DNA of 55,501 nt, taken from NCBI GenBank assembly GCA_001794435.1, contig MGJU01000013.1:157196-212696 (forward strand), read 5' to 3'. This DNA comes from Candidatus Yanofskybacteria bacterium RIFCSPHIGHO2_02_FULL_43_17. Lineage in GTDB: Bacteria > Patescibacteriota > Minisyncoccia > 2-02-FULL-40-12 > GWA2-44-9. Each line of letters begins with the position of its first letter. Positions within the stretch are counted from its first letter, which is position 1. This document shows, one piece after another, positions 1,915 to 51,314 of this stretch. The translations under genes were made by a program, and so were the position numbers. The notes under the pieces are model-generated. The model did not search any database, was not told the DNA's origin, and was given only the letters and a program-made list of their open reading frames with translations.

Positions 1915-3120
1915 ATGCCCCACAAAATCAATCATTCGGAATCCACACAAGAAAGCCTCAAAAAAAGGATTTTATTCGTAATCACGCAGTCAGAGTTCGG
2001 AGGCGCCCAAAGATTTTTGCACACACTAGTTACCCGCTTAGACAGAACCAAATATGAAATACTTGTCGCTGCTGGTCCAAGCTTCGGTAGCAAGTATGAT
2101 CTTCTGGATCTGCTTGAAAAAGAAGAAATAAAAACACTAAGATTAAAATACCTGAAAAGAGAGATAAGTCCCCTTTCTGATATCCGAGCATCTTTTGAGC
2201 TTAGGAAAGCGTCTAAAAAATTCAAACCGGATACGCTGTTCCTCTTAAGTTCCAAGGCGGGATTTATTGGTTCTTTTGTCTCAAAATGCTTAATACGAAA
2301 TACTGAGTACAAAATACTGTATAGAATCGGCGGCTGGACTTTTAACGACCCCTGGCCGAAATGGAAAAAACTGCTTTGGATAATTATTGAACGAATTAGC
2401 GCAAAATGGAAAGATCTCATAATAGTCAACAACAAACATGATTTTGAACAAGCAAACAAATTTAAGATAAGGCCGAAAGAAAAAACGGTAATCATTTATA
2501 ACGGCCTGGATGTTTATAAAACAGGAATTCTTCCCAAAGAAGATGCGCAATTAAAACTATATGAAAAAGCAATCCAGCAATCAGGCAGGGTCTTTCAAGA
2601 CAGAATAATCATAGGCACGATAGCAAACTTCTATCCAACTAAGGGGCTTGGGTATTTAATTGAGACCGCTGAATATTTTAAAAACAAGGATAATATTGTT
2701 TTTATGGTTATTGGAGACGGCCCCGAAAGAGCGAGTCTTGAAAATTTAATAAAACAAAAAGGTCTGCAGAAAAAAATTATCTTTTTGGGTCAAATTCCGG
2801 ATGCACATAAACTGCTTAGCGCATTTGACATATTCGTTCTGCCATCGATTAAAGAAGGCTTTCCGTGGGTTGTAATCGAAGCCATGGCGGCAAAACTTCC
2901 AGTTGTGGCGACAAGGGTTGGCGCCGTGCCGGAAATAATAGAAGATGGCAAAAATGGTTTTATCGTAGAACCGGCTCGCCCCGAACAAATAGCCTCCAAA
3001 ATTCAAGACCTCTTGAATGATGAGCGCCTCCGACAGGAACTTGGTATCCAGGCTCATCAAACGGTTCTGTTCAAGTTTTCACTAGATAAAATGGTTAGAG
3101 AAATTGAAGATTTGTTATAA
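1915..3120 (+). CDS. Family 4 (GT-B) glycosyltransferase
   Basis: 401-aa ORF; signature EGFPWVVIEAMAAKLPVVATRVGAVPEII; divergent from 744-1892 with 22 bp between the start codons. Confidence 0.8.
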   Translation: MPHKINHSESTQESLKKRILFVITQSEFGGAQRFLHTLVTRLDRTKYEILVAAGPSFGSKYDLLDLLEKEEIKTLRLKYLKREISPLSDIRASFELRKASKKFKPDTLFLLSSKAGFIGSFVSKCLIRNTEYKILYRIGGWTFNDPWPKWKKLLWIIIERISAKWKDLIIVNNKHDFEQANKFKIRPKEKTVIIYNGLDVYKTGILPKEDAQLKLYEKAIQQSGRVFQDRIIIGTIANFYPTKGLGYLIETAEYFKNKDNIVFMVIGDGPERASLENLIKQKGLQKKIIFLGQIPDAHKLLSAFDIFVLPSIKEGFPWVVIEAMAAKLPVVATRVGAVPEIIEDGKNGFIVEPARPEQIASKIQDLLNDERLRQELGIQAHQTVLFKFSLDKMVREIEDLL

Positions 3121-3200
3121 TAACATTGTTACATTGTTCAGCCGCTACGCGGCTCATTACTATATTGCTAACAATCCAACAACTTAACAATATAACAGTT
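3121..3200. repeat. 8-nt-period ATTGTTNN / NNAACAAT inverted array element with central GC hairpin
   Basis: attgttac attgttca, then gccgc-tac-gcggc hairpin (3141-3153), then reverse-oriented aacaat/caacaa/taacaat units; same unit family as 17931-18045 and 47347-47380. Confidence 0.6.
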
Positions 3201-9520: not shown

Positions 9521-10921
9521 TTAATTTATTGGTCTGACCCGATAAATTACTCCTGTCACATCGTCGGAAATATATAGATTTCCGCCATTATCAAACTTAA
9601 GATCGACCGGCCGGCCGTAAACTTCTTTTTTGTTATCGCTTATCCATCCTGAAATAAAATCAACCGGCGCTTGTGATATTACATTTCCGTTTTTATCCAA
9701 ATCATATCTGACAACTTTATACCCCGTCAGTTCGCTTCTGTTCCATGAACCGTGAAAAGCCACCAACAAATCCCCTCCCCACTCCTTGGGCCATATCTTG
9801 ACATCGGATGTCCCTCGGCCATCCGATGTCGTTAATGAATTGCTGGGAACAAAAGCAAGCCCTAACGGCGCCGAATGAGCCGGAATTTCGATAACCGGCG
9901 GCTCCGTCTGACTACAGTCGTCGGTAATATCAATTCGTTCCCATTTTTTCGGGTTAAATTTTTTATCCTTAACTTTATCGCCATAGCAGAACGGCCAGCC
10001 GTAACGACGAGCGCCGAATTTATGTTCCGGACCGGCAACCTTGATAATATTTATTTCGTCCGGCGGCAAGTCATCGCCTAAATTGTCTCGCCCCATTTCT
10101 GTCGCCCATATTTCTTTTGTCACCGGATGAAAGACAAAGAAAACAGAGTTCCTCAAACCGCCGGCAAACTCCGCCGTATAACTGCCTTCAGAATCCGATT
10201 CTAATATCGCCGCTCTCTTCCATGTGCTTTCTTCGCAAACATCACAAGACGAACCGATGCTAATATAAAGTTTTGTGTCCACTTGAGTATTAACGCTTGT
10301 CCCTTCTAATATCTGCTTGGTTCGAAAGTTCGGCCCGAACGCGATAGTTCTAGTAAAATGCCCGCCTGCCGGCGAGGCAGGTCCTCCGTCGGCCGGAAGG
10401 TTGACAATGTTTTCGCCTGTTGTGCTGATAAGCTTACCGACACCTGCATCATAAGAGTATCTATTCACTCGATGCGTTTCGGCGACATATAAATAAACAG
10501 TCCCCGTCTTAGTGTCTTTATAAAAATCCAGTCCGTGAGGCGATTTCAATCCGTCAATCAAAACACGCTTGTTTTCAAAACCGCCACTTGCCCCGAGCAC
10601 TGTCGAGAAATCTAAAATACTGACCCTGCCCGCCTTTGTCTCGCTAATCAGCATTCTGCCTTTTGAGTCAAATACTATAACTCGAGGATTTTCCAAGCCC
10701 CTAGCAACAACAGAAATTTCAAAACCCTCCGGAATATCTAAAAATGGCAGTTCTCCGCCATCCACCGAAACCGTCTCCGGCTCCTTAAATTCCGGGGCGT
10801 TATCGCCAATAAATTTTTTAACAAAATTAAAGTCAGTAAAAAAAAGATGGGCAAAAATTACTACCGTTATCAGCGATACGGCCCATAATTTAAAGTTGGA
10901 AATTAAAAATTTAAAACTCAT
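9521..10921 (-). CDS. PQQ-dependent sugar (glucose/sorbosone) dehydrogenase-like beta-propeller, membrane anchored
   Basis: 466-aa ORF; N-terminal TM; motifs GLENPRVIVFDSKGRMLISE, LKSPHGLDF, YGWPFCYG, PAHSAPLGLAF, GRPVDLKFDNGGNLYISDD; in-frame hairpin element at 9797-9835. Confidence 0.7.
   Translation of the reverse strand: MSFKFLISNFKLWAVSLITVVIFAHLFFTDFNFVKKFIGDNAPEFKEPETVSVDGGELPFLDIPEGFEISVVARGLENPRVIVFDSKGRMLISETKAGRVSILDFSTVLGASGGFENKRVLIDGLKSPHGLDFYKDTKTGTVYLYVAETHRVNRYSYDAGVGKLISTTGENIVNLPADGGPASPAGGHFTRTIAFGPNFRTKQILEGTSVNTQVDTKLYISIGSSCDVCEESTWKRAAILESDSEGSYTAEFAGGLRNSVFFVFHPVTKEIWATEMGRDNLGDDLPPDEINIIKVAGPEHKFGARRYGWPFCYGDKVKDKKFNPKKWERIDITDDCSQTEPPVIEIPAHSAPLGLAFVPSNSLTTSDGRGTSDVKIWPKEWGGDLLVAFHGSWNRSELTGYKVVRYDLDKNGNVISQAPVDFISGWISDNKKEVYGRPVDLKFDNGGNLYISDDVTGVIYRVRPIN
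9797..9835. repeat. T-hairpin element copy T1 (39 nt, short form), inside CDS
   Basis: cttgacatcggatgtcc-ctc-ggccatccgatgtcgttaa; 14-bp arms with 1 mismatch; read in frame as LTTSDGRGTSDVK. Confidence 0.8.
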
Positions 10922-12497
10922 AGATGAAAAATGATTGCCCTATCTTATCAACCGGTTTATACAACGCCAGCCAATTCAAACCAGGATCTTTTCTTTGGTT
11001 GCTTAATAGTTGCATACGGATTAACAAGAAAGTATTAACGGCATACCTGCCTTTCGGCTCCCGCCACCAGCCGGAATCATCGGCCATCATAAAATTCTTC
11101 ACTCCATAGTATTCGGGGCTTGAATTTTTCCACGAATAAACAACTTTAGTATCCGGATTTTCCGCTTGATATTTCCCCAGCCGCTTCAAATCCTGCCCCC
11201 ACTCAACATTGGAATCATCCAAATATTTATACCCGTTTTCCGGCCCCCCGACAAGTTCATTAAAATAGGACATGTGGTCAGGATAAGCGCGGACCGCCGA
11301 AGATATTTGCCAAAGGCCTAAAATCATAATCGCAATCATTCCCGCCCTTATGCTTGTTTTATAATTTCGATATTTCGATATTTCGATATTTCGAAATGTT
11401 TCAGTTATCCCGCCGGCATAAAGAATTAAAAACGGATAAATCGGCAAAATATATCTGATGCTGATATCGTGGGCCTTTATGCTTGTGACAAAAGTAAAGG
11501 AGATCACCGGCAGAAACACGAACACCTTGCCCCAACCGTCCATCTTTATTTTTTTATAAAATAAAATTGAGGTCACAAACACGATAAGGGCGGGGATTGG
11601 TGTTTTTATTACAAACGCTTCCAAAAAGTAGTACCACCAACCGTCAGGCGAGAAATTGCCATTCAGATAAAAATTATAGCCGGGCTTCCAGTCGGCGTAA
11701 ATTGTTCTTAATCCTTTTATATAAAATCCGAGATCAGAAGGCATTAAATAAATGAAATAAAGAATGATAAAAGCCGGGACAATGGCAATCAAAGAAAAGT
11801 TGGCCAACCGACGTATCTTTGTATTGATCTCCCCTCCGCACCGCCATGCGTAAACAAGGATAAACAAAGAGATCACGGGCAGAAACACGATAGCAGAAAA
11901 TTTTGAACCTAGCGTCAAGCCGAGAAAAATACCAGAAAAAACCAGTTGTTTCTTATCGTTGAGCTTGATGAAGCGCCATAAATAGTAAAATGTTATAAAT
12001 GAAAAAGCAGCAAGAGCTAGATCGGTTGTAACAAACTGGGCATTAGCGATAATGACGGGCATAAAGGCATACAGAAATAAGGATAAAAATCCCGCCTTGC
12101 GACTAAATATTTCTGAAGCCCATTTATAAACATAAAAACCAAGCAAAACAGAGATAAGCATCACCGACAGCCGACCCCACAACAGCAACTTGTCCATATT
12201 GTTGGAAGATAGGAAATTTTGGCCAAAGGCCCACTCGTTTCTGATCGGTCCGATTAAATTGGGGTCTTTATCGTTAAATTTAAAATCCATAAAAAGTAAA
12301 GGAAAAGAGGCCAACAATTTTACTAGCGGAGGATGTTGGGGGTTTAGAACAACCTGGCCTGTTTTCCAGTAAGAATATCCGCTTGGAAGATGGGTTATTT
12401 CATCAGTTGCCGGACTGAAATTCTGCGCGCTGAAAAACGGTAGCAGAAAAACGACACTCAATAAAACGATAACGACCGCCTTGTAATACTTAAACAT
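10911..12497 (-). CDS. GT39/GT83 family (PMT/ArnT-like) lipid-carrier-dependent glycosyltransferase
   Basis: 528-aa polytopic ORF; N-terminal loop DEITHLPSGYSYW...NPQHPPLVKLL typical of PMT_2/ArnT enzymes; 11-nt overlap with downstream gene. Confidence 0.7.
   Translation of the reverse strand: MFKYYKAVVIVLLSVVFLLPFFSAQNFSPATDEITHLPSGYSYWKTGQVVLNPQHPPLVKLLASFPLLFMDFKFNDKDPNLIGPIRNEWAFGQNFLSSNNMDKLLLWGRLSVMLISVLLGFYVYKWASEIFSRKAGFLSLFLYAFMPVIIANAQFVTTDLALAAFSFITFYYLWRFIKLNDKKQLVFSGIFLGLTLGSKFSAIVFLPVISLFILVYAWRCGGEINTKIRRLANFSLIAIVPAFIILYFIYLMPSDLGFYIKGLRTIYADWKPGYNFYLNGNFSPDGWWYYFLEAFVIKTPIPALIVFVTSILFYKKIKMDGWGKVFVFLPVISFTFVTSIKAHDISIRYILPIYPFLILYAGGITETFRNIEISKYRNYKTSIRAGMIAIMILGLWQISSAVRAYPDHMSYFNELVGGPENGYKYLDDSNVEWGQDLKRLGKYQAENPDTKVVYSWKNSSPEYYGVKNFMMADDSGWWREPKGRYAVNTFLLIRMQLLSNQRKDPGLNWLALYKPVDKIGQSFFIYEF
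11363..11396. repeat. Octamer tandem array (ATTTCGAT)x4 ending in palindrome atttcgaaat, inside CDS
   Basis: atttcgat atttcgat atttcgat atttcgaa at; translated FRNIEISKYRNYK within the GT39 gene. Confidence 0.85.
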
Positions 12498-17146: not shown

Positions 17147-19066
17147 CTATTTGATAGTTAGTTGTCGAATAAGTTCCGCTATCAACTTCCCCGTCTCCGG
17201 GTCAACGCTGGAATACTTCAGTCCTTCGTTAAGATCAATGAGCGCTTTCTCTTTGTTGTTAAGGGCGACATAAACAAGCGCGGAATTGTAGTAGACGCGA
17301 GGATTACCGGGGAGAAGTAGTTTTAATTTTTCTATATTTATTACCGTTTGAATAAAATCCCCCCGCTGTGCATAGATAACCGCCAAGTTTTGGTACGGGT
17401 AAAAAAAGCCGGGGTCAATCTCTATGGCCTTATTGAACTCTGCAATCGCGCCCTCAATGTCGCCCCTCGACTGCAATATGCTCCCGATATTAAAATGCGG
17501 CTGGGCAAAATCGTTCCCCGACCCGACGGCTTTTCTGTAATAAAACTCGGCCCGATCCATATCTCCTTGATTAAAATATCGGTTGCCAAGATTATTATTT
17601 ATCTTGATGCTGTCCGGCTCGTATTTGAGAATGTCTTTATAAAATTCGACGGGATTGCCCCATAAGACATTTCGCTGGACAGATTGATAACCAAAGAAAA
17701 GCAGGTAAGCTAGCAAGCCCGTAAGCAATAAGCCACGAAAAATTAGGTTTTTGGATTTTAAGAAATCAAACAGTTTAATCAAATAAAAAGAAGCTATGAG
17801 CCAAAAGCCGACCATCGGCAGATAAAGCCAGTGTTCGTATATTAAGGCGTTGATTGGCGTAATCCCGGAGACCATCGCCAGACCGATGAAAAACCAACCC
17901 GTTCCGAATAGCCAAATTCGGAATGGGAAAATTGTTACATTGTTAAATTGTCGAATTGTTGCACCTTCAGATTGTTGAATTGTTACATTGTTAAACCTCT
18001 CCTTCTTATACATAACAATTAAACAATATAGCAATATAGCAATGATTGTAGCACCAAGCCAGACCGGCCACTGGAACAGCGATGTATGCACCACCATACT
18101 TCGTTCCATATGAAGACCTGTGGGCACGAACAGTAAGCGGAAGTAATCAATCAGAACGTGCATAAAGGTAAAGAGGCGATAAATTATATTTTCCGAATAT
18201 GGGTTGGCTTTACTGTAGAAATTCAGAGTATTTTGAAAATTCAAAACCGTTAAGCGTAATATTCCGTAAACAGCAACAACCCCGAAATAAGGCAATGCTT
18301 CTTTAAACGCGTTCTTGACATCGAACACCTTAACGCCTGATGTCCCGCGGCCATCCAATGCCCGCCCGTCCTCTGGCGCGGTCGTTAATTTATTCTTATC
18401 GGAAAACGCGATATAAAACACCATCAAGAGAAAAGGAAATATAACTCCCGTTTCCCGGCTCAAAATCGCCAAAACAAAAGCCGCCAAAGACAAGGTTTTA
18501 AGCCACCGAAACCCTGTGGATAATCGACTTCGCAAGTCGATTATCCACAGGTAGAGGGCGAGGAGAATAAAGAACACCGACAACGGATCGCCACGGCCGG
18601 AGATATATGCAACAGCTTCGGTGTTGAGAGGATGAATAGCAAAAAAAAGCGCGGTTAAGAAGGCCACAATCTGGCCGGCATATCTTCGCAATAAAACAAA
18701 TACCAGCACTGCGTTGGCAATATGTATTGAGTTGCTTACTAAATGCCAAAGGAACGGTTTCGTTTCGGATACAACCCAATTAAGAGCAAAAGTGAAAAAG
18801 AGGAACGGTCTGTAATAGTTGCTCTGAAGTCCGATTCCAGCTAACGCATTGTTGGAAAACCAAAACTTTATACTTTCCCAATTTATTGAGTGGACGTAAA
18901 CATTGTTGATTATCCAATCATCGTCATCCCAAAAAAGCTCGTTGTTCAAGTTAAAAGAATAGACAAAACCGCCTATTACCACCAGGAATATAATCGGCAA
19001 CCATGCTTCTTTTTTATTCAGCAAGTTCATATTTATACTTTGAAAAAACCGGCCTATTCTTATCAT
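17147..19066 (-). CDS. TMTC-like polytopic membrane protein with C-terminal TPR repeats (paralog of 15210-17072)
   Basis: 639-aa ORF (alternative ATG at 19030); LFWDDDDWIINN motif, multiple TM helices, TPR repeats; contains three different mini-elements in frame. Confidence 0.6.
   Translation of the reverse strand: MIRIGRFFQSINMNLLNKKEAWLPIIFLVVIGGFVYSFNLNNELFWDDDDWIINNVYVHSINWESIKFWFSNNALAGIGLQSNYYRPFLFFTFALNWVVSETKPFLWHLVSNSIHIANAVLVFVLLRRYAGQIVAFLTALFFAIHPLNTEAVAYISGRGDPLSVFFILLALYLWIIDLRSRLSTGFRWLKTLSLAAFVLAILSRETGVIFPFLLMVFYIAFSDKNKLTTAPEDGRALDGRGTSGVKVFDVKNAFKEALPYFGVVAVYGILRLTVLNFQNTLNFYSKANPYSENIIYRLFTFMHVLIDYFRLLFVPTGLHMERSMVVHTSLFQWPVWLGATIIAILLYCLIVMYKKERFNNVTIQQSEGATIRQFNNVTIFPFRIWLFGTGWFFIGLAMVSGITPINALIYEHWLYLPMVGFWLIASFYLIKLFDFLKSKNLIFRGLLLTGLLAYLLFFGYQSVQRNVLWGNPVEFYKDILKYEPDSIKINNNLGNRYFNQGDMDRAEFYYRKAVGSGNDFAQPHFNIGSILQSRGDIEGAIAEFNKAIEIDPGFFYPYQNLAVIYAQRGDFIQTVINIEKLKLLLPGNPRVYYNSALVYVALNNKEKALIDLNEGLKYSSVDPETGKLIAELIRQLTIK
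17931..18045. repeat. 8-nt-period inverted array (ATTGTTNN)n ... (AACAATNN/AGCAATNN)n inside CDS
   Basis: eight 8-nt units at 17931-17994, seven starting ATTGT (17-nt direct duplication attgttacattgttaaa); reverse-oriented units aacaatta aacaatat agcaatat agcaatga at 18014-18045. Confidence 0.75.
18314..18388. repeat. T-hairpin element copy T2 (long, composite form), inside CDS
   Basis: cttgacatcg...ttaacgcctgatgtcccgcggccatccaatg-cccgcccgtcctctggcgcg-gtcgttaa; shares about 55 nt with T4 in opposite orientation; read as LTTAPEDGRALDGRGTSGVKVFDVK. Confidence 0.7.
18514..18550. repeat. REP palindrome copy 2, inside CDS
   Basis: Identical 37-mer; read in frame as LWIIDLRSRLSTG. Confidence 0.95.
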
Positions 19067-20624
19067 TGTTTTTAACCAAGATTATAGCATTTTCGTTAAT
19101 AAACACCACTTTCCAGTCAGAATTCCTAATTATACTTTTTAAGAACGCTTGCCCCCACGGCGTCGCGTCAGTGTGGCCGAAAAATATGAAGTTAATACCA
19201 TATTTGTTGGAAAACTCCTCCCACTTCTCTCTGTTTTCCTGCATCGGCTTGTATATCTCGCTGAAAAATTCTACTGAATATGCCTCCGGGCGGTTATCAA
19301 CGAATACTTTTTCCTCCGGCAATTTCCATATCAGATAGCCGCCAATGTCAAAATTATTGAACATAGGCCCCTCTATATTATTCTTCTTAACAAAACTAGC
19401 CGCACGTTCCAGTCCGTCTGGAACTGAAAAACCGAAAGTTTTTGATAATCTCGCCCATTTATAATAACCTCCGCTCGCCACAAAAAAAATCATAAAAACC
19501 AGAAAAACGACCAGCAACATCTTGGCCGCCCACTGAAGCCTGGCTTCTGCCTGCCTCCAGAAGCCTGGCTTCTGGAAAGCTGAAAACACATCGGTTAGCA
19601 AGATTACCATCACCGGAAAAGATGCCAGCGCGTATAAGGGCAAATTGCGAAGCATCCTGAATCCGGCATAAATAAAGAAGGTGGAAATTAAAATTTCGAA
19701 AATCCTTTCTTTTGTCTTCTTGACGGTCAGCAAAAAAGAAACAACCAGAACCGCCGTTGAGATCTTAAAAATAAAAATCGACAAATTAAAACCGAATAAA
19801 TCAGCCAAAAAAGCAAGCGTTTGGTTTTCAACAATGCTGTAACCATATTCTTTCAGGATATTAAAAGGCAGTAGCGCTCCCTGAATTCCGGCGGGATTTA
19901 TAAGAGTAGCCAATCCGATCAATCCGCCGACCAGTAACAATTTTTGTATTACGTATTTCGTATTTCGTATTATGGGATCAAATAAGCGGTCAATAAAAAA
20001 GGCCAAAAACAAGATTGGGCCGATGAAGAAATAGATGTGGAGGTTAACCCACAACAACTGCGCCAACGGCAAAAACCATAACCAAGACGGAGTTTTAACA
20101 TCGGGAGTCCCGCGGACTTCCGATGTTGTTAATTCGTATTTCGCCTTAAACAACGCGGATAAGAAAAACGCTAGTATCAAAAAACTGAAAATCTCCGGCC
20201 TCACCTCCGTCCGGGAAATAAATATAAATATTGAGAGAACGAAAGAAACAATTATTGGCCAAAAACCTACTCTAACCCCTGTGGATAATCGACTTCGCAA
20301 GTCGATTATCCACAGGGGTTTAATGGTTAAAAGCAAGAGTATAAACGTCGCCAGAACTACAAAAATCTTAAGCAAGATAAGGCCGGTGAATCCGCCCAAA
20401 TTATAGACGCCGTAAAATATTACTTCGCTTAGCCAATGATGATTTGTAAACGGAAAGTCCGGCTCGGTGAAAGAGAATAGGTTGGTTGTCGGAACACTTT
20501 TTGTCTCCCAAATTATCTCCCCTGTCTTCAAATGCCGCCCGATATCCTGGCCGATAGAATCAAAATTGTGAACCAGAAAAACGGCCAGAAGACCGAAAAG
20601 AAGAATAAAAGTCAGGAGTTTCAT
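19014..20624 (-). CDS. Polytopic membrane protein, possibly GT-C-type glycosyltransferase (function uncertain)
   Basis: 536-aa ORF with more than 10 TM helices and a soluble C-terminal domain; contains four different mini-elements in frame; overlaps the start of 17147-19066. Confidence 0.5.
   Translation of the reverse strand: MKLLTFILLFGLLAVFLVHNFDSIGQDIGRHLKTGEIIWETKSVPTTNLFSFTEPDFPFTNHHWLSEVIFYGVYNLGGFTGLILLKIFVVLATFILLLLTIKPLWIIDLRSRLSTGVRVGFWPIIVSFVLSIFIFISRTEVRPEIFSFLILAFFLSALFKAKYELTTSEVRGTPDVKTPSWLWFLPLAQLLWVNLHIYFFIGPILFLAFFIDRLFDPIIRNTKYVIQKLLLVGGLIGLATLINPAGIQGALLPFNILKEYGYSIVENQTLAFLADLFGFNLSIFIFKISTAVLVVSFLLTVKKTKERIFEILISTFFIYAGFRMLRNLPLYALASFPVMVILLTDVFSAFQKPGFWRQAEARLQWAAKMLLVVFLVFMIFFVASGGYYKWARLSKTFGFSVPDGLERAASFVKKNNIEGPMFNNFDIGGYLIWKLPEEKVFVDNRPEAYSVEFFSEIYKPMQENREKWEEFSNKYGINFIFFGHTDATPWGQAFLKSIIRNSDWKVVFINENAIILVKNNDKNRPVFSKYKYELAE
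19534..19575. repeat. 17-nt direct repeat of a palindromic unit (gaagcctggcttc) inside CDS
   Basis: ctgaagcctggcttctg at 19533-19549 and cagaagcctggcttctg at 19558-19574 (16/17 identical); translated QKPGFWRQAEARLQW. Confidence 0.7.
19944..19971. repeat. Heptamer array (NCGTATT)x4, inside CDS
   Basis: ttgtatt acgtatt tcgtatt tcgtatt; translated IRNTKYVIQ. Confidence 0.75.
20095..20132. repeat. T-hairpin element copy T3 (short form), inside CDS
   Basis: ttaacatcgggagtcc-cgc-ggacttccgatgttgttaa; read as LTTSEVRGTPDVK. Confidence 0.8.
20279..20315. repeat. REP palindrome copy 3, inside CDS
   Basis: Identical 37-mer; arms extend to 20 bp (cccctgtgg...ccacagggg, 20276-20318); read as LWIIDLRSRLSTG. 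Confidence 0.95.
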
Positions 20625-20632
20625 TTATTAAT

Positions 20633-20663
20633 AACTTCGCAAGTCCAATGGACTTGCGAAGTT
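20633..20663. repeat. REP-core variant hairpin (no DnaA-box arms), intergenic
   Basis: aacttcgcaagtcca-a-tggacttgcgaagtt; shares the cttcgcaagtc / gacttgcgaag core with the REP; sits between the stop of 20684-21355 and the start of 19014-20624. Confidence 0.6.
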
Positions 20664-20683: not shown

Positions 20684-21355
20684 TTACGGCAGAACTACTG
20701 TTATTTTCCCGTCGCACTGTTTCTCAAACACTTTCACATTGCCTCCGACTGTTACGAAATTGCCTTTATCGTCCACAAGCCGGCCATACTGCATCTTGGC
20801 GGTTAATTCGTATTGTTCATATTTAGGATTTTCCGGCAAAGTGATGCTTAGTAAATTTTCTCCGTTCGGCAGAACCAATCTACCGAAAATATTCGGCCCA
20901 ACCGATAAATCGTCTTGGGGAATTACCGTCCAGAAAATATTCCTTGCCGGATGGTCAACACCGCTGTAAATGAATTTCGCGTCTTGGTTGTCGTAAGTAT
21001 TGTGATTAAGAAATTTGATTTCGCCTTGCAAACGGCACGATGCCTGGCCCAAAAGCAAACTCCACGGCACCGGCTCGTCTGTAAAGGAGGTCCTACCATC
21101 TCCGGTAGGCAAAGGCACGCTTGACGCGATCGGTCTGGGAGTTGGCATTGGAGAAAGATTGTCTGTTGCTTGCGGTGAGCCAGTCGAATCCGCTGACGGT
21201 TCCGGAGAATTAATGGCCGCGCCAGAGGACGGGCGGGCATCGGATGGCTGTTGGACATCCGATGTCCAACGCCAAAATCCCCCGAAATAAACAGCGGACA
21301 AAACTGCTCCGATGATCACAATTAATAAAAATAATTTGTTTTTTAATATAGTCAT
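20684..21355 (-). CDS. Membrane-anchored hypothetical protein
   Basis: Start moved to the ATG at 21355 (MTILKNKLFLLIVIIGAV, TM helix); the longer 21487 start would read through a structured palindrome; T4 element sits in frame near the N-terminus. Confidence 0.5.
   Translation of the reverse strand: MTILKNKLFLLIVIIGAVLSAVYFGGFWRWTSDVQQPSDARPSSGAAINSPEPSADSTGSPQATDNLSPMPTPRPIASSVPLPTGDGRTSFTDEPVPWSLLLGQASCRLQGEIKFLNHNTYDNQDAKFIYSGVDHPARNIFWTVIPQDDLSVGPNIFGRLVLPNGENLLSITLPENPKYEQYELTAKMQYGRLVDDKGNFVTVGGNVKVFEKQCDGKITVVLP
21210..21273. repeat. T-hairpin element copy T4 (long form), inside CDS
   Basis: ttaatggccgcgccagaggacgggcgggcatcggatggctgttggacatccgatgtccaacgcc; the first 34 nt match the reverse complement of T2 at 31/34. 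Confidence 0.7.
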
Positions 21356-21398
21356 AATCTTAAAATAGTAACTAAATAATCTTCTAAAATCAAGTAAA

Positions 21399-21469
21399 CC
21401 AGGTAGTAGATTTTTGAGATGCGGCTTTGGCCGCAAGTGGCAGAGCCAACTCAAAAATTCACTACCTGG
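21399..21469. other. 71-nt structured palindromic element (possible sRNA, leader structure or MITE)
   Basis: 20-nt arms ccaggtagtagatttttgag / ctcaaaaattcactacctgg (18/20 complementary) enclosing the gcggc-tttg-gccgc hairpin. Confidence 0.5.
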
Positions 21470-21477
21470 CAAACCAA

Positions 21478-21506
21478 AACCCCACACATAAATTATGTGT
21501 GGGGTT
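21478..21506 (-). terminator. Intrinsic terminator after the 1228-aa gene
   Basis: aaccccacacat-aaatt-atgtgtggggtt, 12-bp stem; followed on the minus strand by TTTGGTTTG. Confidence 0.75.
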
Positions 21507-25280: not shown

Positions 25281-25748
25281 TTTAATTTATTTATTTGCCC
25301 TGAACCGTAACTGTTCTATCGCTCTTACTATGAGGATAGATCGACCAGTTCCGGAACAGAGTTTGATTACTGTTTTATTTTACTATCTTTAATTCCCTCA
25401 CTGTTTTAAGGTCTTATTTCATCGTCGCCGAATTTACTTTTAATTCGACCGGTAAATTATTGGAGACGACTTTTTTCGACTCAAGACCTTTGTTCGCAAA
25501 TTTAATATACTTTTCTGATTTCGCTACATTATTGTCTTTCTCCTGATTTTCAACGTTCGTTCGTTAGCTATCCGCTTCTGATAACGACCTGGGTCATCTC
25601 CAGAAGCGGCCAGCCCATATGATTCGACACTACTCACCACAAGAAACACAAAGCAGCCAAAACGTGGCTACACCTTAGTCGAGTTAACTATTGCATTTGT
25701 CATAATTTACGCTGTTTTGCTGGATATATGCGAATTTTTGACTTTCTT

Positions 25749-25776
25749 ATGCTAGCAAACTAGTTGAGAAAGTCAA
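25749..25776 (-). promoter_or_regulatory. Weak candidate promoter within an inverted repeat of TTGACT boxes
   Basis: Minus strand TTGACT (25776-25771), 16 nt, TAGCAT (25754-25749); 10-bp inverted repeat ttgactttct / agaaagtcaa at 25738-25747 and 25767-25776. Confidence 0.2.
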
Positions 25777-25870
25777 CGTCCTATTTAGTAATTATATATT
25801 GCCTGTATAGGGCCGCAAGGCCGTCAATTGTGGATAATTAAGTGTTTGTCCAAGAGCGTAGCAATTGGCT

Positions 25871-25978
25871 ACAAACACTTACCCCGCACCAATCCCGCCC
25901 AATTTCTGAATGGCGGTCATCCATTCGACTACGCTCAGGATGACCCTGAGTATAATCGAACGGGTCAGCGGTAAGATT
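25871..25978. other. 108-nt nested-hairpin element directly 3' of the 1231-aa gene
   Basis: Perfect 14-bp closing stem accccgcaccaatc / gattggtgcggggt; inner hairpins ccgcc-N12-ggcgg and ctcagg-atgac-cctgag. Confidence 0.6.
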
Positions 25979-25995
25979 GGTGCGGGGTCACTACA

Positions 25996-28900
25996 TTACT
26001 TTGCGAGGACTACCCTGCCCCCATAACCCCACACCAATCCATGTTCGGTAAGGGCCGGAGAAATCGTTGAGTTTGAGCCGGAATTGATAGCCCAGCGCTG
26101 ATTTCCTGTGTTATCTACACTAAATAACTTGCCGTTTTGAGTGGAGAAATAGACATTACCGGCGCCGTCTACGGCCAATTGTGCATTGAGGAGACCGTCG
26201 GCCTGGAATGGGGCTGGCCATTTCGCCGCGAGGTCTGATTTATTCAAGGCAAAAACCTGCGAACCGGAAGCGAAACTGGGGCTGTTGAAACCGACATAGA
26301 GCGTGTCTGACGATATGGCAACCATCGTGGCGGCGGAATAGTCCCACGGGGCAATACTGCTGGAATTTAAAATTGAACCGTCGGATGGAATATTGAATAA
26401 TTTGGGACCGGCGGCGGAGTAGGTTATACCTGTTGCCTTATCGTATGAGGGATTGGCGGGAGTGCTACCATTGGCGCCGGCATAGGATACCTGCCAAAGT
26501 TGAGCGCTGTCGGATGAATAAGTAGTGAAAAATTGATTCCCGCTTACTTTTCCGGCCACGATCATTATACCGTCATCCAACACAACTGGCGCAAATCCGC
26601 TCAAACCGGAAGCGCTTATCGGAAAGGGTGTTTTTATTGAACCGTCGGCGTTTAAAACAGCCAGCTTATCGGTGCCGCTTGTGTAAGTAAGGTGCGGTTC
26701 GCCTTTTGATGATACAGTAAACGTCAAAACCGTACTTGTATCGACGTAATCCCACTTGTCAGAACCATCCGAGGCCAGAGCGGTAAATGCCAGCACTCCG
26801 CCCGCGCCAATGCGGCCGAAGTATACGGTTCCGTCGGAAAGAACCGCCGGCGTGCCGATGCTTACATAAGTCTCATATTCCCATTGTTTGACGCCATTTT
26901 TATTCAGTTTAATCAATTTGTGGGACGAGCCGTCCGTAGCGCCGAAATAGATATTGCCGTCAGCGTCAGCCACCGGCTGGCTTACAATGTATCCTGATTC
27001 CAGTTCGTTAAATTCCCAGCTTACGGTTGCCGTCAGGCCTGGACCGACTACATCAGCAAAAGAAGTATGAAACTGGTCCTTGCCGAACATCGCCCAAGCG
27101 CCATGATCTAAAGCGGTCGGAAAACTAACCGTAGCCACATTCGAAATCCCCGAACACTTATCTGCATGACCGACATCGCAAGTCGGACTGTGGATAACTT
27201 TGGTCCTCAAAGCGAGGTAAAGCGTCAATCCGTATTCAGGAACAACATTAAAAGAAATACCTTGTTGCGCCCCCTTTATACCAACGCTCGGCAAACTGGA
27301 ACTGGCAACTTGTATAGCGACAGACCACCAGCTTTCACTTGCGGCATCGCTAAAACTGGTAGACGAGTAGCGCAGATCATAGCTTAAACTTGCCGTATTA
27401 TAATCGCCCGGATCGGGTGCAGTCCAGGTTGCGGTAATAGTGGGGGAACCGTGGGCGGCGATGAGATTGGTAACGACAGACGGTTTTGATGCTACGTCAC
27501 CGACCGTTATCAAGTCTTTTATGTTGTTAAATGTAACCGGGCCGATACCGCTGACATTCTGAATATCCTCTATTTGCGCGAAGGGGCCGTTGGTTGTGCG
27601 ATAATCAATAATTGCTTGCGATTTTACTTCACCAATACCGGGAAGAGACATCAACTCTTCTTTGTTTGCGGTGTTAATATTGATTTTCTCGGTTGATGAT
27701 TCTTCTTCCGGTTCTGGTGACGGCGATGGTGTCACCGACGGAGATGGTATCGGGGTTGGTGTCGAAGACGAACTTCCGCCACCGCTTCCGCTTCCGCCAC
27801 CTCCGCCAGTCGACGTAACAACCTGAATTGCCGTGCTATTACTGGTTTTGGGCGTTCCGTTGATACTATTTCCACTAGCATCTTTGTTTGTTGGCGTCCC
27901 GGAAAAATTTTTCCAATTTGAAGCATTGTTTCCAGCTTTCATCGGATCTATTCTCTCCATCGAATTTTTTGATATTGAGTCGCCGAAATACCAGGCCTCA
28001 CCAGCACCGCCAACTACATCTACAACGGCCCCGGCGCTATCAAATAGTCTTACTATTTCGCCCGTGTTGCTCAAACCTCCCTGACCGAAACTTACAGCCA
28101 AATCAGCTGTTGTGTCGCTTATTGTGTTGTCATCTGTTCTTTCGATGAGAAAGTAGGAATTAGCTTGGATAATCGTCCCTTCTGGAAAAATAATATCCGG
28201 AGAATCATCGGTTGAAACAAGTTGCCAGCTAGATATGTCTACTGGTGTGTTTTCAGTATTATACAGCTCGACCCACTCGTCGGTCGCGGAAGCCGAGGTT
28301 CCCGCCCAAGCAATTTCATTGACCACTACTCTGCCCAATGTCTTGGCTGCGGATAACTTTGGAGTAGGTGACGGAGTTGGTGTTTTTGGTGGTGTCGGTG
28401 TGGGAGATGGTGACAACTTTGGTGACATTGATGGTTTTGGTGATACCAATGGTGACAGAGATGGTGACATTTTGTTGTCACCTTTAGCGTCACCGCTGTC
28501 ACCATTATTTGTCACCACTGGTAAGGGTTTAATGTCGGGTGTCGCTAATTCGTCGTTAGCATCTGATGTCGAACTTGTGCCTAACTCTGCTAATTCATCG
28601 CTGTTATTACCGCCAAACCCAAACAAACTGGCAATCTGTGCCCAAAAGCTTGGCTTTTTTTGCTCTTGTTTCGCTAGATATTCTTTCTTTGCTATCTCTG
28701 CTTCTTCTAAAAATAATTTTAGGGCGCCGGCGCCGCTAATAACAACTTCTTTAGACAACCTCTCCCAGTACCCGTCAAGGATGTAGGAGCCAATTTCTGA
28801 CGAATAAACATAAAAATTAATATTGCCGTCTTTTTCTTCCTGCACAAATGCTATCGGAAAGTCGGCTCCATTTTTATCCTGGTTAGTAACAAATAATCTT

Positions 28901-29691
28901 TCTGTACCATTGACTCTTATTCTTTTTAGATTGTTTATACTTGGTTTTATGTATTCTCTGTTGCTAATGGTGTCTCTGCTAAAGAAATTGTTATTAGAAT
29001 AATTCGCAACTCTATCCAAGTAACTGCCAATATCAGATAACACGACTGGTTTTTCTCTGTTTCTAACCAATCTTGAAACAACTTGAAAATTATCCGGATT
29101 CCATTTAGCCATTTCGTGTTCGTAAGGACTGCCTAAATCAAGAACAGGTGGGTGTGGGTCATTTCTAGTGTGGTCTGGCACTCCGGCGTCTTCCAATAAG
29201 TGCAATACATGGCCGAAAGCGATGAAAGCCCTTTGTTTATCGCCTTTTGCGTAATCCTGAATCGCCCTATCGTATGAGAAATCGTGTATTGAATCAGCGC
29301 CCGATATGGCCGCGTATCCGGTCATTTGGCTGTTATAGAAGTCCTTCTGCGTACCACCAAAAGCCCACTTTTTTGAGGAAAAGGTAGGTACGCCTGCGGT
29401 GAATACCGACTGAAGCCCTCGGTCATAAACCGGGTCATAAAAATGGCTGAAAAACCTGCCCCCGTCGTCCTCATCAATTGAGCCCTTTATAAGCCACTGT
29501 TTCTCCTCTTGAGTTATCGTCTTGTCTGTAAAACTTAAATTATAGAAATTAGCTATCTCGTCAGTCAGCGCCGGATGAGTGGTGTTTTGAGAATAAGCAA
29601 AAATCGGGCTCGCGTTTACGAGTACCAAAAGGACGCTTAATAGCGCCCCTCCTAAAATAAATTTATGGTTTATAAACCTTCTATTTTCCAT
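25996..29691 (-). CDS. Secreted multidomain protein: Zn-PLC/P1-nuclease-like N-domain, lamin-tail domain, ComEA-type HhH DNA-binding domain, beta-propeller repeats
   Basis: 1231-aa ORF; HVLHLLEDAGVPDHTRND (PLC/P1-like); VVVNEIAWAGTSASATDEWVELYN...SNTGEIVRLFD (LTD); ININTANKEELMSLPGIGEVKSQAIIDYR...VSGIGPVTFNNIKDLI (ComEA HhH, about 27505-27692); DGNIYFG / DGTVYFG repeats. Confidence 0.7.
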   Translation of the reverse strand: MENRRFINHKFILGGALLSVLLVLVNASPIFAYSQNTTHPALTDEIANFYNLSFTDKTITQEEKQWLIKGSIDEDDGGRFFSHFYDPVYDRGLQSVFTAGVPTFSSKKWAFGGTQKDFYNSQMTGYAAISGADSIHDFSYDRAIQDYAKGDKQRAFIAFGHVLHLLEDAGVPDHTRNDPHPPVLDLGSPYEHEMAKWNPDNFQVVSRLVRNREKPVVLSDIGSYLDRVANYSNNNFFSRDTISNREYIKPSINNLKRIRVNGTERLFVTNQDKNGADFPIAFVQEEKDGNINFYVYSSEIGSYILDGYWERLSKEVVISGAGALKLFLEEAEIAKKEYLAKQEQKKPSFWAQIASLFGFGGNNSDELAELGTSSTSDANDELATPDIKPLPVVTNNGDSGDAKGDNKMSPSLSPLVSPKPSMSPKLSPSPTPTPPKTPTPSPTPKLSAAKTLGRVVVNEIAWAGTSASATDEWVELYNTENTPVDISSWQLVSTDDSPDIIFPEGTIIQANSYFLIERTDDNTISDTTADLAVSFGQGGLSNTGEIVRLFDSAGAVVDVVGGAGEAWYFGDSISKNSMERIDPMKAGNNASNWKNFSGTPTNKDASGNSINGTPKTSNSTAIQVVTSTGGGGGSGSGGGSSSSTPTPIPSPSVTPSPSPEPEEESSTEKININTANKEELMSLPGIGEVKSQAIIDYRTTNGPFAQIEDIQNVSGIGPVTFNNIKDLITVGDVASKPSVVTNLIAAHGSPTITATWTAPDPGDYNTASLSYDLRYSSTSFSDAASESWWSVAIQVASSSLPSVGIKGAQQGISFNVVPEYGLTLYLALRTKVIHSPTCDVGHADKCSGISNVATVSFPTALDHGAWAMFGKDQFHTSFADVVGPGLTATVSWEFNELESGYIVSQPVADADGNIYFGATDGSSHKLIKLNKNGVKQWEYETYVSIGTPAVLSDGTVYFGRIGAGGVLAFTALASDGSDKWDYVDTSTVLTFTVSSKGEPHLTYTSGTDKLAVLNADGSIKTPFPISASGLSGFAPVVLDDGIMIVAGKVSGNQFFTTYSSDSAQLWQVSYAGANGSTPANPSYDKATGITYSAAGPKLFNIPSDGSILNSSSIAPWDYSAATMVAISSDTLYVGFNSPSFASGSQVFALNKSDLAAKWPAPFQADGLLNAQLAVDGAGNVYFSTQNGKLFSVDNTGNQRWAINSGSNSTISPALTEHGLVWGYGGRVVLAK
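27171..27197. repeat. Degenerate/rearranged REP remnant inside CDS
   Basis: cgacatcgcaagtcg (14/15 to the REP centre) followed by ctgtggataa (10/10 to the REP arm start); translated VIHSPTCDVG. Confidence 0.4.
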
Positions 29692-30191: not shown

Positions 30192-30222
30192 GAAATAAGG
30201 TGGCTAAAGCAAAATCACACAC

Positions 30223-30259
30223 CTGTGGATAATCGACTTCGCAAGTCGATTATCCACAG
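30223..30259. repeat. REP palindrome copy 4, intergenic
   Basis: Identical 37-mer, loop cgc; 39-nt with flanking c/g. Confidence 0.95.
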
Positions 30260-30499
30260 GTTACTATCGCCAACAACACACGAAAAAGGCGAAGCGTTAA
30301 ACTTTTGTAACCTGCCACAATCTATTATACAAAAGTTAGACCAGCAAGTTAAGGAGGGACATGACTTACCGTTCTAACAAGTACAATTAAAATCGCGGCA
30401 GATTATAAAAATTCAAAAAAATAAAAACAGAAGCTAGCGTCTGTATAGATAATTCTTTATCAAATCATCCTTTCCTAGTCAATACTGTAAGCTCACAAC

Positions 30500-30536
30500 C
30501 TGTGGATAATCGACTTGCGAAGTCGATTATCCACAG
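30500..30536. repeat. REP palindrome copy 5, immediately 5' of the RAYT gene
   Basis: Identical arms, loop gcg (opposite orientation to copy 4); ends 13 nt before the ATG at 30550. Confidence 0.95.
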
Positions 30537-30549
30537 GTATACTGCTGGA

Positions 30550-31215
30550 ATGGAAAATGTTTATCACACATTAAATCGTGGAGTAGAGAAACGAGAAATC
30601 TTTATGGATAAACAAGATTATCTTAGATTTATCCACAATCTTTATGAGTTCAATGACGAGGATAGGATTGAGAATTCTATCAAGATTTTTCTAACTGATC
30701 CTAAGCTAGCCGATACTACTACTAGAAAGAGAAGAAAAACCCTCGTTGATATTCTTGCTTTTTGTTTGATGCCCAACCATTATCACCTGATGCTTTCACC
30801 GCAAGTCAAAAACGGAATTCCCAAGTTTATGGCTAAAGTTAATATCGGTTACGCCAAATATTTCAACCAAAAATACGAAAGAGTTGGCGCATTGTTTCAG
30901 GGAAGATACAAACAAGTACCAATCACTGACAATACTCATTTTCTCCATTTGCCGTTCTATATTCACTTTAACCCCCTCGACTTAAAATTTCCGGAATGGA
31001 GAGAAAACAAAATAGCAAGTCCGCAAAAGACGCTCGAGTTTCTCGAGTCCTACAAATGGAGTAGCCACTTAGAATATCTCGGCGTAAAAAATTATGGCTC
31101 GGTTTTAAATAAAAAAGTTTTAAACGAAGTTTTCGATGGAAGCGCCGGTTATAAAAAACTTGTTGAGACATATCTAAAAGACATCCAGGTAGATAGCGAA
31201 GTTTCTCTTGAATAA
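30550..31215 (+). CDS. REP-associated tyrosine transposase (RAYT; IS200/IS605-like HUH Y1 transposase family)
   Basis: 221 aa from the ATG at 30550; HUH motif in LMPNHYHLML, catalytic Tyr context FQGRYKQVPI, N-terminal YHTLNRGVEKREIF; flanked on both sides by REP copies. Confidence 0.8.
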   Translation: MENVYHTLNRGVEKREIFMDKQDYLRFIHNLYEFNDEDRIENSIKIFLTDPKLADTTTRKRRKTLVDILAFCLMPNHYHLMLSPQVKNGIPKFMAKVNIGYAKYFNQKYERVGALFQGRYKQVPITDNTHFLHLPFYIHFNPLDLKFPEWRENKIASPQKTLEFLESYKWSSHLEYLGVKNYGSVLNKKVLNEVFDGSAGYKKLVETYLKDIQVDSEVSLE

Positions 31216-31216
31216 T

Positions 31217-31253
31217 CTGTGGATAATCGACTTGCGAAGTCGATTATCCACAG
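31217..31253. repeat. REP palindrome copy 6, immediately 3' of the RAYT gene
   Basis: Identical arms, loop gcg; starts 2 nt after the RAYT stop; lies between convergent genes so may also terminate both. Confidence 0.95.
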
Positions 31254-48815: not shown

Positions 48816-48875
48816 ATTACGTATTACGTATTACGTATTTATTCGTAAATAATCCGTAATTTGTAATTCGTAATA
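48816..48875. repeat. Heptamer inverted array hairpin (ATTACGT x3 ... CGTAATN units)
   Basis: attacgt attacgt attacgt att / cgtaaat, cgtaatt, tgtaatt, cgtaata; starts 7 nt upstream of the start of 48309-48809. Confidence 0.8.
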
Positions 48876-48993: not shown

Positions 48994-49017
48994 ATTACGA
49001 ATTACGGATTACGTATT
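48994..49017. repeat. Heptamer array, left boundary of the four-helix-bundle cassette
   Basis: attacga attacgg attacgt att; contains the stop codon of 49009-49386. Confidence 0.8.
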
Positions 49018-49386: not shown

Positions 49387-49410
49387 AATCCGTAATGCGT
49401 AATTCGTAAT
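49387..49410. repeat. Heptamer array, right boundary of the four-helix-bundle cassette (inverted relative to 48994-49017)
   Basis: aat ccgtaat gcgtaat tcgtaat; begins 1 nt after the start codon. Confidence 0.8.
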
Positions 49411-51276: not shown

Positions 51277-51314
51277 AAGATAAAGAGGTCCCACGAGGAG
51301 CGGGACCTGACTAC

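Follow-up and report, generated by a model that had tools for sequence, protein, structure and literature searches.

In-frame palindromic repeats in the predicted cytoplasmic loops of a membrane glycosyltransferase from a Patescibacterium

Palindromic repeats inside bacterial genes

Selfish DNA within protein genes is known mainly from Rickettsia and from a few species rich in repetitive extragenic palindromes (REPs). The former elements, the Rickettsia palindromic elements (RPEs), were reportedly described by Ogata et al. in 2000 and 2002. The subject here is a 55.5-kb stretch of DNA (the window) from an organism that, judged from the source names of orthologous proteins and of related transposase loci, belongs to Candidatus Yanofskybacteria (Patescibacteria, in the Candidate Phyla Radiation, CPR). 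One gene in it, at 17147-19066 on the minus strand, encodes a membrane glycosyltransferase with C-terminal tetratricopeptide repeats (TPRs) and carries three unlike repeats in one open frame: a REP, a degenerate form of a repeat here called the T-hairpin, and an inverted array of octamers. The explanation considered probable is that families of palindromic repeats have colonised a genome that is some 92% coding, and that their in-frame copies persist in cytoplasmic loops that tolerate them. If so, selfish DNA in protein genes extends to the CPR.

RPEs (mentioned in PMC3733652 and PMC1779305) are, like the window elements, short palindromic and apparently selfish repeats in frame in functional genes of a small, gene-dense genome. 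They too come as several unrelated families per genome and are translated as extra surface or loop peptides, as the window elements seem to be. They belong to another phylum and appear to have no sequence relationship to the window elements, which are shorter (about 40-115 nt). One family here adjoins an identifiable transposase gene, and the inserts concentrate in the predicted cytoplasmic loops of a polytopic membrane enzyme, where differing elements recur. The resemblance to RPEs, and to the intragenic REPs considered next, appears to lie in how the elements work and not in family membership.

REPs and their REP-associated tyrosine transposases (RAYTs), in the arrangements termed REPtrons and REPINs (PMC2817692, PMC3337134, PMC5581495), share with the window a Y1/HUH transposase gene flanked by a dispersed palindrome, and a REP whose sequence changes together with its RAYT from genome to genome; the T-hairpin looks like a doublet of REPs (REPIN). 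REPs in frame within genes are recorded for Opitutus terrae, Rickettsia conorii and other species, and REP superfamilies are marked at one end by a GTAG or CGTC tetranucleotide tag (PMC3733652). The window REP differs in having neither tag, in its longer and perfect stems (18-22 bp), in an AT-rich outer stem with a DnaA-box 9-mer, in having half of its copies within genes where REPs are as a rule extragenic, and in its host, a Patescibacterium. No report of REPs, RAYTs, miniature transposable elements with inverted repeats (MITEs), or palindromic or in-frame repeat elements in CPR/Patescibacteria was found in the literature searched.

For the octamer array, and for the PF05635 cassettes with which such arrays are associated, the intervening sequences (IVSs) of 23S rRNA in Coxiella and Leptospira are a described counterpart (PMC4990558). 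These have a PF05635 open reading frame (ORF) bounded by stem-forming terminal inverted repeats, and tandem heptamers beside the ORF start whose number varies among strains; in Coxiella the ORF is that of S23p, and there too the repeats at the ends are inverted and the heptamers vary in number. The cassettes here lie outside rRNA, in or between protein genes, and each of their ends is a whole array of units 7-8 nt long. Inside protein-coding genes there are versions that lack the gene as well as single arms, and RNase III excision, the hallmark of an IVS, would here destroy an mRNA. MITEs of bacteria (Correia/NEMIS, RUP, ERIC, Nezha; PMC10969869) are also small non-autonomous repeats with inverted ends and many dispersed copies, sometimes co-transcribed with genes. 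By contrast, no structure of terminal inverted repeats (TIRs) plus target-site duplication is demonstrated for the window elements, no parent insertion sequence is identified for them, and the array arms are short tandem units, not unique TIRs. The heptamers of cyanobacteria and Beggiatoaceae (STRR, TAACTGA; PMC4679880) are likewise dispersed units of 7 nt, repeated in tandem 2-6 or more times and common to distant lineages, and the mechanism of neither is known. Those are mostly intergenic and upstream of start codons, whereas many of the units described here are in frame in ORFs, often as inverted pairs, and tied to PF05635 cassettes.

The host gene and its three repeats

The host gene encodes a TMTC/PMT-like membrane glycosyltransferase of the presumed GT-C type, 639 aa in length, with 11 predicted transmembrane (TM) segments ahead of the TPR domain. 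Its closest relatives are proteins of Candidatus Yanofskybacteria and other Patescibacteria from groundwater metagenomes. The C-terminal third consists of TPR repeats (Pfam TPR families, E 1e-18), the paralog at 15210-17072 matches TMTC_DUF1736, and some orthologs match PMT or PMT_2. The traits of TMTC/PMT-like enzymes are found in the host gene and its relatives: a multi-pass N-terminal domain, an acidic motif in the first external loop (EL1; DDDD at aa 47-50 of the host protein, after TM1), a DUF1736 loop and C-terminal TPRs.

An earlier note on this DNA, made from its letters, had described three mini-elements within this single gene. All three are present essentially where it placed them, and the ORF stays open across them. 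The translation contains the peptide quoted there, ...IAILLYCLIVMYKKERFNNVTIQQSEGATIRQFNNVTI, and peptides such as LWIIDLRSR and FNNVTIQQSEGATIR run across insert junctions. As that note had proposed, alignment with the paralog delimits the inserts: at 24% identity (BLASTP), gaps of 11, 21 and 25 aa fall exactly at the three elements.

The note had also named a decaying pseudogene as the finding that would overturn its reading. Orthologous DNA was fetched for P0126 (79% identity; loci L001-L004) and P0003 (70%; L005-L007). Outside the insert regions the ratio of nonsynonymous to synonymous substitution (dN/dS) is 0.071 against L001 and 0.056 against L005, with synonymous sites near saturation (dS 1.3 and 2.1, respectively). 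Such values show a functional gene under strong purifying selection and thereby refute decay.

Loops that tolerate insertion

Loop lengths were surveyed in an alignment of 121 orthologs (52-80% identity), to which all figures on loop and segment length refer. Internal length variation is confined to five short loops, after TM2, TM4, TM6, TM8 and TM10 (CL1 to CL5), each with a length standard deviation (SD) of 7-10 aa. The N-terminus and TM1 also vary slightly. EL1, EL2, EL4 (DUF1736), EL5 and most TM segments have an SD of 0.0. Among the loops of zero variance are the first external loop with its DDDD motif (65 aa), HPLNTEAV..GRGD (15 aa), DUF1736 (57 aa) and ITPINALIYEHW (12 aa); TM2, 4, 7, 9, 10 and 11 are equally invariant, and the TPR domain is almost so.

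In a check for a GT-C fold, AlphaFold gave a mean predicted local distance difference test (pLDDT) score of 66, with values below 50 over the inserts at aa 224-247 and 360-378, and Foldseek and PDB sequence-profile searches matched TPR proteins only. The topology was therefore taken from homology to TMTC enzymes and from positive-inside statistics. TMTC enzymes have 11 TM segments, the N-terminus inside, and the DUF1736 loop and TPRs outside (PMC7801869). The charge alternation of the host family agrees with this: the N-terminus and insert-free CL1-5 have a net charge of +1.4 to +3.2, and EL1-5 one of -1.6 to 0. On this assignment the five variable loops would be cytoplasmic, with the REP in CL2 (TM4-5), the T-hairpin in CL3 (TM6-7) and the octamer array in CL4 (TM8-9). 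A hydropathy reading with 13 TM segments was rejected, as it would put the K/R-rich loops outside and the conserved catalytic loops inside.

The earlier suggestion that loops of this protein are unusually permissive thus gains support, the three elements being in loops assigned to the cytoplasm and internal indels being limited to the five loops. The check that it proposed, whether all inserts fall in loops, has a positive outcome on this assignment for the three inserts, in CL2-CL4; the complementary arm of the octamer array lies inside TM8. The host is not alone in carrying inserts. Of the orthologs 19-30% bear a long insert in any one loop, and the inserts are differing palindrome-derived peptides, among which LTTSDVRGTSDVK, QGSTFLKIQGRTFL, LEVQPQKSPRLNLG and VDKRLAKS recur. 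With a long insert defined as median loop length plus 6 aa, at least one is present in 85 of the 121, at least three in 16 and none in 36, the modal number being one. The host protein is at the high end of insert number, yet it is not unique.

The REP and its transposase

The repeat in CL2 (18513-18551) is a perfect 18+3+18 palindrome, CCTGTGGATAATCGACTT-CGC-AAGTCGATTATCCACAGG, translated LWIIDLRSRLSTG. It folds with a free energy of -32.5 kcal/mol (z = -8.2). That it is a REP, as first claimed from the letters, is confirmed by its repetition: six identical copies are present in the window against 0 expected, three of them in frame inside ORFs, and further copies occur in the related genome of L001-L004. 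Apart from the host copy, one (546-582) is in frame in a GT2 glycosyltransferase ORF (14-757), where the alternative open frame is used (AVDNRLAKSIIHR; VDNRLAKSIIHR), and one with 22-nt arms (20274-20320) is in frame in the membrane ORF 19014-20624 (LWIIDLRSRLSTG). The other three are close to a RAYT gene. The copy at 30498-30538 is directly 5′ of it, 11 nt from the ORF, that at 31217-31253 directly 3′, 1 nt from the ORF, and the third (30221-30261) is intergenic, about 240 nt further upstream than the 5′ REP. In either orientation the REP has two reading frames free of stops, the third reading GGA TAA, and both open frames are in use within the window.

The RAYT gene (30550-31215, plus strand) encodes a Y1/HUH transposase of 221 aa with the HUH motif PNHYHLM and the tyrosine of GRYKQV. 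It matches Pfam Y1_Tnp (PF01797) with E 3.8e-9 and 37.2 bits, the gathering score being 23. It is the sole plus-strand gene in its stretch, opposite to almost all other genes. The RAYT with its two flanking REPs and the third one upstream, at 30221-31253, has the layout of a complete REPtron. On the plus strand the REP loop is CGC in the four dispersed copies and GCG in the two that flank the RAYT.

A scan of species-representative genomes for RAYT homologs led to 80 loci being kept, mostly of Patescibacteria. Most of 52 scanned RAYT loci are flanked by palindromes of their own (L008-L010 for instance). The closest relative, L008 (86% identity), has the same REP as the window. In the REPs of L009, L010 and L012 the outer stem CCTGTGGATAA is retained, and the inner stem has compensatory changes.

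Each REP arm holds the 9-mer TTATCCACA, a DnaA-box consensus, which is part of the stem retained in the REP variants at L008-L010 and L012. The window has 18 occurrences of the 9-mer where about 0.6 are expected, 12 in REPs and six elsewhere (15199, 25829, 27189, 30629, 36388 and 36417). The window has neither a dnaA gene nor a GC-skew switch that would give the REP an oriC/DnaA context.

The REP of the host gene in the window and that in L001 stand at the same codon and agree at 39/39 nt, although the flanking DNA is 70% identical and dS is 1.3. In the neighbouring ORF 19014-20624 the REP site is also common to both lineages, with the 3-nt loop flipped relative to L001/L003. The copies would seem either to have been homogenised or re-copied, or to mark sites that were used again.

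Some other sequences recall the REP. An intergenic perfect palindrome at 20633-20663, AACTTCGCAAGTCCAATGGACTTGCGAAGTT, has arms that hold the REP centre ACTTCGCAAGT, and may be a relative. At 27160-27200, within ORF 25996-29691 (a 1231-aa LTD/HhH protein), the in-frame degenerate TTATCCACAGTCCGACTTGCGATGTCGG is REP-like and may be a decayed copy. The CL2 peptide of the ortholog P0117, LWIIDFASRLSTGVDKRLAKSLW, looks like two adjoining REPs in different open frames and suggests a REP dimer.

The T-hairpin

The repeat in CL3 (18314-18390, minus strand; translated KLTTAPEDGRALDGRGTSGVKVFDVK) is a long T-hairpin in which a GC-rich segment of 21 nt (18361-18381) is nested. A second long copy with the same segment lies in the opposite orientation at 21208-21270 (plus strand), in frame in ORF 20684-21487 (WTSDVQQPSDARPSSGAAIN); the two, compared over 18314-18390 and 21208-21248 on the other strand, have 31/31 nt in common (41 nt at 93%). 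The canonical T-hairpin, GACATCGGATGTCC-CTC-GGCCATCCGATGTC, is at 9800-9830, in frame (LTTSDGRGTSDVK) in the TrAA12/GSDH-like ORF 9521-10921. Each of its arms is a small palindrome, GGACATC-S-GATGTCC, the whole being a doublet of the 15-nt palindrome GGACATCSGATGTCC.

The long T-hairpin of the earlier note is present and has this second copy, but it forms only a weak hairpin (z = -2.4 for the sense strand, -1.6 for the other). It is best described as a degenerate composite, apparently a decayed T-hairpin with a nested 21-nt insertion. At CL3, L001 and L005 have the T-hairpin GACATCGGGTGGCCAACGGACACCCGATGTC without the 21 nt, and no further copies of the nested segment were found in the 210 fetched loci. 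Perfect T-hairpins are present four times in 22 kb of the related genome L001.

The RAYT of L031, from another Patescibacterium (51% identity), has the T-hairpin half, ATGGACATCGGATGTCCAT, on both sides, and at L032 a T-hairpin-like element is close to the RAYT. Since its half palindrome flanks the L031 RAYT, it is plausible that the T-hairpin is a REPIN-like pair of REPs that depends on another RAYT.

The same loops in other lineages and the same repeats in other genes

The DNA of the window gene, L001 and L005 was aligned loop by loop. At CL1, L001 has a 42-nt T-hairpin (GACATCGGATGTCC-GCG-GGACATCCGATGTC), and the window and L005 are empty. At CL2 the REP is present in the window and in L001, and L005 has an unrelated palindrome, ATATGGAAGTT-CA-ACTTCCATAT. 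At CL3 a T-hairpin and a further half copy are present in L001 and L005, and also in the window with its additional 21 nt. At CL4 the octamer array of the window is matched in position by a T-hairpin in L001 and by an inverted heptamer array in L005. An ortholog, P0123, that might pass for a population allele bearing one more T-hairpin is not relied on, since it probably combines two co-occurring lineages as a chimera or recombinant.

About 92% of the window is coding, and the element families are in frame in at least seven of its other genes: GT2, PMT_2, TrAA12/GSDH-like, ORF 19014-20624, ORF 20684-21487, ORF 25996-29691 and LepA. The PMT_2 ORF (10911-12497), for a second membrane protein of the GT-C family, has an octamer array with a self-complementary unit, (AATATCGA)x3.9, at 11364-11394, in frame (TFRNIEISKYRNYKT). 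The membrane ORF 19014-20624, which has no Pfam match, holds the REP, a T-like element (ELTTSEVRGTPDVKT) and (AATACGA)x4, all in frame. It shows presence/absence differences from L001 and L003, and these strain variants themselves differ by a 15-nt indel beside the REP. The alternative offered in the earlier note, that the elements target something about the TPR gene, is not upheld: with the same elements in so many other genes, they look like genome-wide repeats that survive where they are tolerated.

The octamer array and PF05635 cassettes

The element in CL4 is not a simple insert. At 17929-17995 ATTGTTNN is present about eight times, facing inverted AACAATNN/CAATATAG units (AACAAT/CAATAT) at 18013-18043, all within a gene of the minus strand. 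In the sense of the gene the first arm is (NNAACAAT) x8, giving 66 nt or 22 aa (FNNVTIQQSEGATIRQFNNVTI). The spacer (17996-18012) is native coding sequence with a Y-K-K-E motif that is conserved in array-less orthologs. The complementary arm, (ATTGYTNN) x4, encodes the C-terminal half of TM8 (IAILLYCLIVM), a segment of 20 aa with an SD of 0.2, and entails no length change relative to orthologs. Of the in-frame element proposed at 17931-18045, therefore, the arm at 17929-17995 is extra, and that at 18013-18043 replaces TM8 codons at unchanged length, so that one arm lies within native coding sequence. The pattern ATTGTTNNATTGTTNNATTGT, allowing up to 3 mismatches, has 9 matches against 0.39 expected. 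A second ATTGTT/AACAAT inverted octamer array is intergenic (3117-3199; fold z = -3.5), has a central GC hairpin and shares a 14-nt exact match with the host array.

Orthologous octamer arrays are present in L088 (P0007) and L089 (P0019). Their common layout is a (ATTGYTNN)x4 arm in TM8, a native Y-K/R-K/R-E spacer, and only (NNAACAAT)x7-8 as extra sequence. L005 (heptamer GTATTAT/AATACTN) and L090 (octamer GTAT../ATACCAYA) have a like layout at the same place with other units; the two arms thus covary across lineages. As hairpins the arrays of L089 (z = -5.5), L005 (-4.7) and L090 (-3.9) are significant. The array of L088 matches that of the window at 87% identity, against 70% for the whole gene.

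Arrays of this kind also bound genes. A PF05635 gene (23S rRNA-intervening-sequence protein; 49009-49386, E 6e-32) is enclosed at 48994-49410, on the minus strand, by (ATTACGN)3 ... (NCGTAAT)3. At a distance of 120 nt a gene-less inverted array, (ATTACGT)3.4 / (NCGTAAT)4, occupies 48816-48874 with the same unit (z = -2.7). The gene next to the cassette (ORF 49420-51294), for the strongly conserved translation factor LepA, has in-frame heptamer arrays, (ATTACGN)3 + (ATACGCA)4, between domains II and III (50364-50431, minus strand), one of them of the cassette unit, which add about 20 residues. ATTACG/AATACG heptamer arrays are dispersed across several genes and genomes, and PF05635 genes of L005, L020 and L090 are bounded by inverted heptamer arrays of other units.

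A metagenome scan for (AACAATNN)x4, in which 80 loci were inspected, yielded 68 with direct arrays only, 8 gene-less inverted pairs and 5 cassette-like entries, the last being four distinct loci as L150 scored on both strands. In L118, L150 and L161 a PF05635-like ORF lies exactly between (ATTGTTNN)n and (AACAATNN)n. The gene directly downstream of the L150 cassette has (AACAATNN)x4, of the cassette unit, in frame at 3157-3186 (VQNNNSTIQQFNNS). By eye, this downstream gene resembles a class-II aminoacyl-tRNA synthetase/EpmA. A match of unit between a cassette and the arrays of the adjoining gene is not a rule: it holds in the window (LepA) and in L150, and does not in L005 or L090. The literature searched for PF05635 with repeat arrays held only the heptamers of the Coxiella IVS.

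From these sequence comparisons we conclude that the octamer array is one of the class of periodic arrays, of 7-8 nt per unit, that bound PF05635 cassettes, although in the host gene it encloses 17 nt of native coding sequence and no PF05635 ORF. Only tentatively can it be proposed that array-bounded PF05635 genes, for Avd-like four-helix-bundle proteins, form a so far overlooked family of mobile cassettes, in Patescibacteria and in further bacteria, whose ends spread as in-frame inserts and whose palindromes are extended by template switching. Should this be true, there would be hairpins with arms that evolve together although their unit changes from lineage to lineage, and these cassettes, together with REPs driven by a RAYT, would turn the cytoplasmic loops of membrane proteins into a lasting store of selfish DNA in CPR genomes.

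For this element alone there is the possibility, which we regard as real if not favoured, that the inverted array formed in place by slippage and inverted duplication, or by a template switch, of the end of TM8, without transposition. An arm in TM8 at unchanged length with a spacer that is native Y-K-K-E would follow naturally, as would lineages with different units at the same site and matching arms; moreover the complement of hydrophobic codons encodes hydrophilic residues, and a TM end copied in inverted form would be well suited to a loop. On the other hand the ATTGTT/AACAAT unit recurs at the unlinked intergenic site of the window, with its 14-nt exact match, and bounds PF05635 cassettes in three metagenome contigs, and the ATTACG/AATACG arrays are dispersed over several genes and genomes. 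These recurrences indicate that dispersal of arrays occurs, and dispersal and formation in place may act together.

How the repeats may have come to lie in the loops

The explanation favoured for the locus as a whole begins with several families of small palindromes that would have spread through a genome with almost no intergenic space. The REP would be mobilised as a single-stranded hairpin by the RAYT encoded 12 kb away, and the periodic arrays would spread in addition to such RAYT-type transposition of hairpin repeats. The host enzyme is taken to have a cytoplasmic N-terminus and to expose the catalytic loops and the TPR domain on the outside, and its five short cytoplasmic loops would be the only internal sites that tolerate extra residues. 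Selection would then leave in-frame, stop-free copies in tolerant loops, to be translated as 13-25 extra, mostly hydrophilic or basic residues. In the octamer array, the AACAAT arm (gene sense) would be what was inserted, and the palindrome would then have been extended into the tolerant coding sequence of TM8 by template switching.

Several points weigh against this explanation. The topology leans on homology and charge bias, the AlphaFold model being mediocre (mean pLDDT 66) and PDB matches covering the TPR domain only, and translation of the inserts is deduced from preservation of frame and avoidance of stops alone. The best NCBIfam match of the RAYT, REP_Tyr_transpos (E 1.7e-10), scores 41 bits, below the curated cutoff of 80. 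Neither a GTAG nor a CGTC tag is present in the REP consensus, CCTGTGGATAATCGACTT-NNN-AAGTCGATTATCCACAGG, or its flanks, and the repeat is of a class other than the described superfamilies. Insertion once, followed by drift, does not explain the 39/39 identity of the REP between lineages or the flipped loop. The window has no RAYT flanked by T-hairpins, and neither the T-hairpin in this genome nor the arrays have a known transposase. The octamer array of the window is not significantly stable as a hairpin (z = -1.1), nor is that of L088 (z = -0.3). To our knowledge PF05635 proteins are not known enzymes.

Could the elements instead recognise loop sequence or DNA structure, such as a palindrome already present, so that the hot spots reflect choice of target? 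Differing elements do occupy the same few codons across lineages; the REP is at an identical nucleotide position in the window and L001 despite a dS of 1.3; the REP in the neighbouring gene is at a shared site with its loop flipped, as if re-inserted; the 21-nt segment is nested inside a T-hairpin; and at the REP site L005 has its own unrelated palindrome. Yet the hot spots coincide exactly with the five loops of positive charge, the other internal segments having zero length variance, and a pure DNA target would not track protein topology. The same elements are also present in many unrelated genes and in intergenic DNA, and comparison of the empty and filled CL1 sites reveals no evident shared target motif in the flanks. 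Targeted insertion is accordingly considered unlikely.

We rate as improbable a domesticated function, in which the hairpins are kept for a role in the mRNA (ribosome pausing after a TM segment, decay controlled by RNase III), as pairs of DnaA boxes, or for useful peptides. Conservation gives it some attraction: the REP is perfect in lineages with saturated synonymous sites, the arms of the CL4 array covary though the unit differs, window and L088 agree at some 87% in the array but at 70% over the gene, and the DnaA-box 9-mer, at 18 occurrences against 0.6 expected, is kept in the REP variants of L008-L010 and L012. Recognition by the RAYT alone would, however, account for conservation of the REP, and the window array is no more stable than shuffled sequence. 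Any given insert is missing in many orthologs (36 of the 121 are without a long insert, and the modal number is one), the kind of insert differs between close lineages, and the insert peptides are mutually unrelated and modelled as disordered. No terminator-like signal and no Rfam match is found at the elements. As candidates for intrinsic terminators or promoters they had been rejected outright, counts of such signals being equal to the shuffled expectation and none being at the elements; in Rfam the window as a whole has three tRNAs only, with no rRNA.

That the gene is a decaying pseudogene or the inserts are assembly artefacts is scarcely credible, for although repeats can cause misassembly of metagenomes, and P0123 looks chimeric or recombinant, dN/dS is 0.06-0.07, the identical host protein is present on 4 contigs and held by several public sources, and orthologous inserts are found in the independent assemblies of L001-L004, L088 and L089.

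Wider relevance

The coding density of CPR genomes is high, and repeats have almost nowhere else to go than into genes. For the GT-C glycosyltransferase the orthologs supply a natural map of tolerance to insertion, in which all five predicted cytoplasmic loops take 10-45 extra residues and the other internal segments none, and which should be useful for engineering and modelling TMTC/PMT enzymes. There is also a warning for annotation and phylogenomics in that loop inserts of CPR proteins are repeat-derived and lineage-specific. Such inserts may be homogenised at the DNA level, and can mislead alignments, estimates of dN/dS and structure prediction. The maintenance of REP populations can be studied in a RAYT/REP system whose stems are long and perfect and whose REP stays identical despite saturated divergence. 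The association between PF05635 cassettes and inverted periodic arrays bears on the long-unexplained biology of the PF05635 family.

A further observation concerns 25281-25995, where about 715 nt are without an ORF, unusually long for the window, and have no Rfam match. Within it, a small GC hairpin is followed by the DnaA-box 9-mer at 25829.

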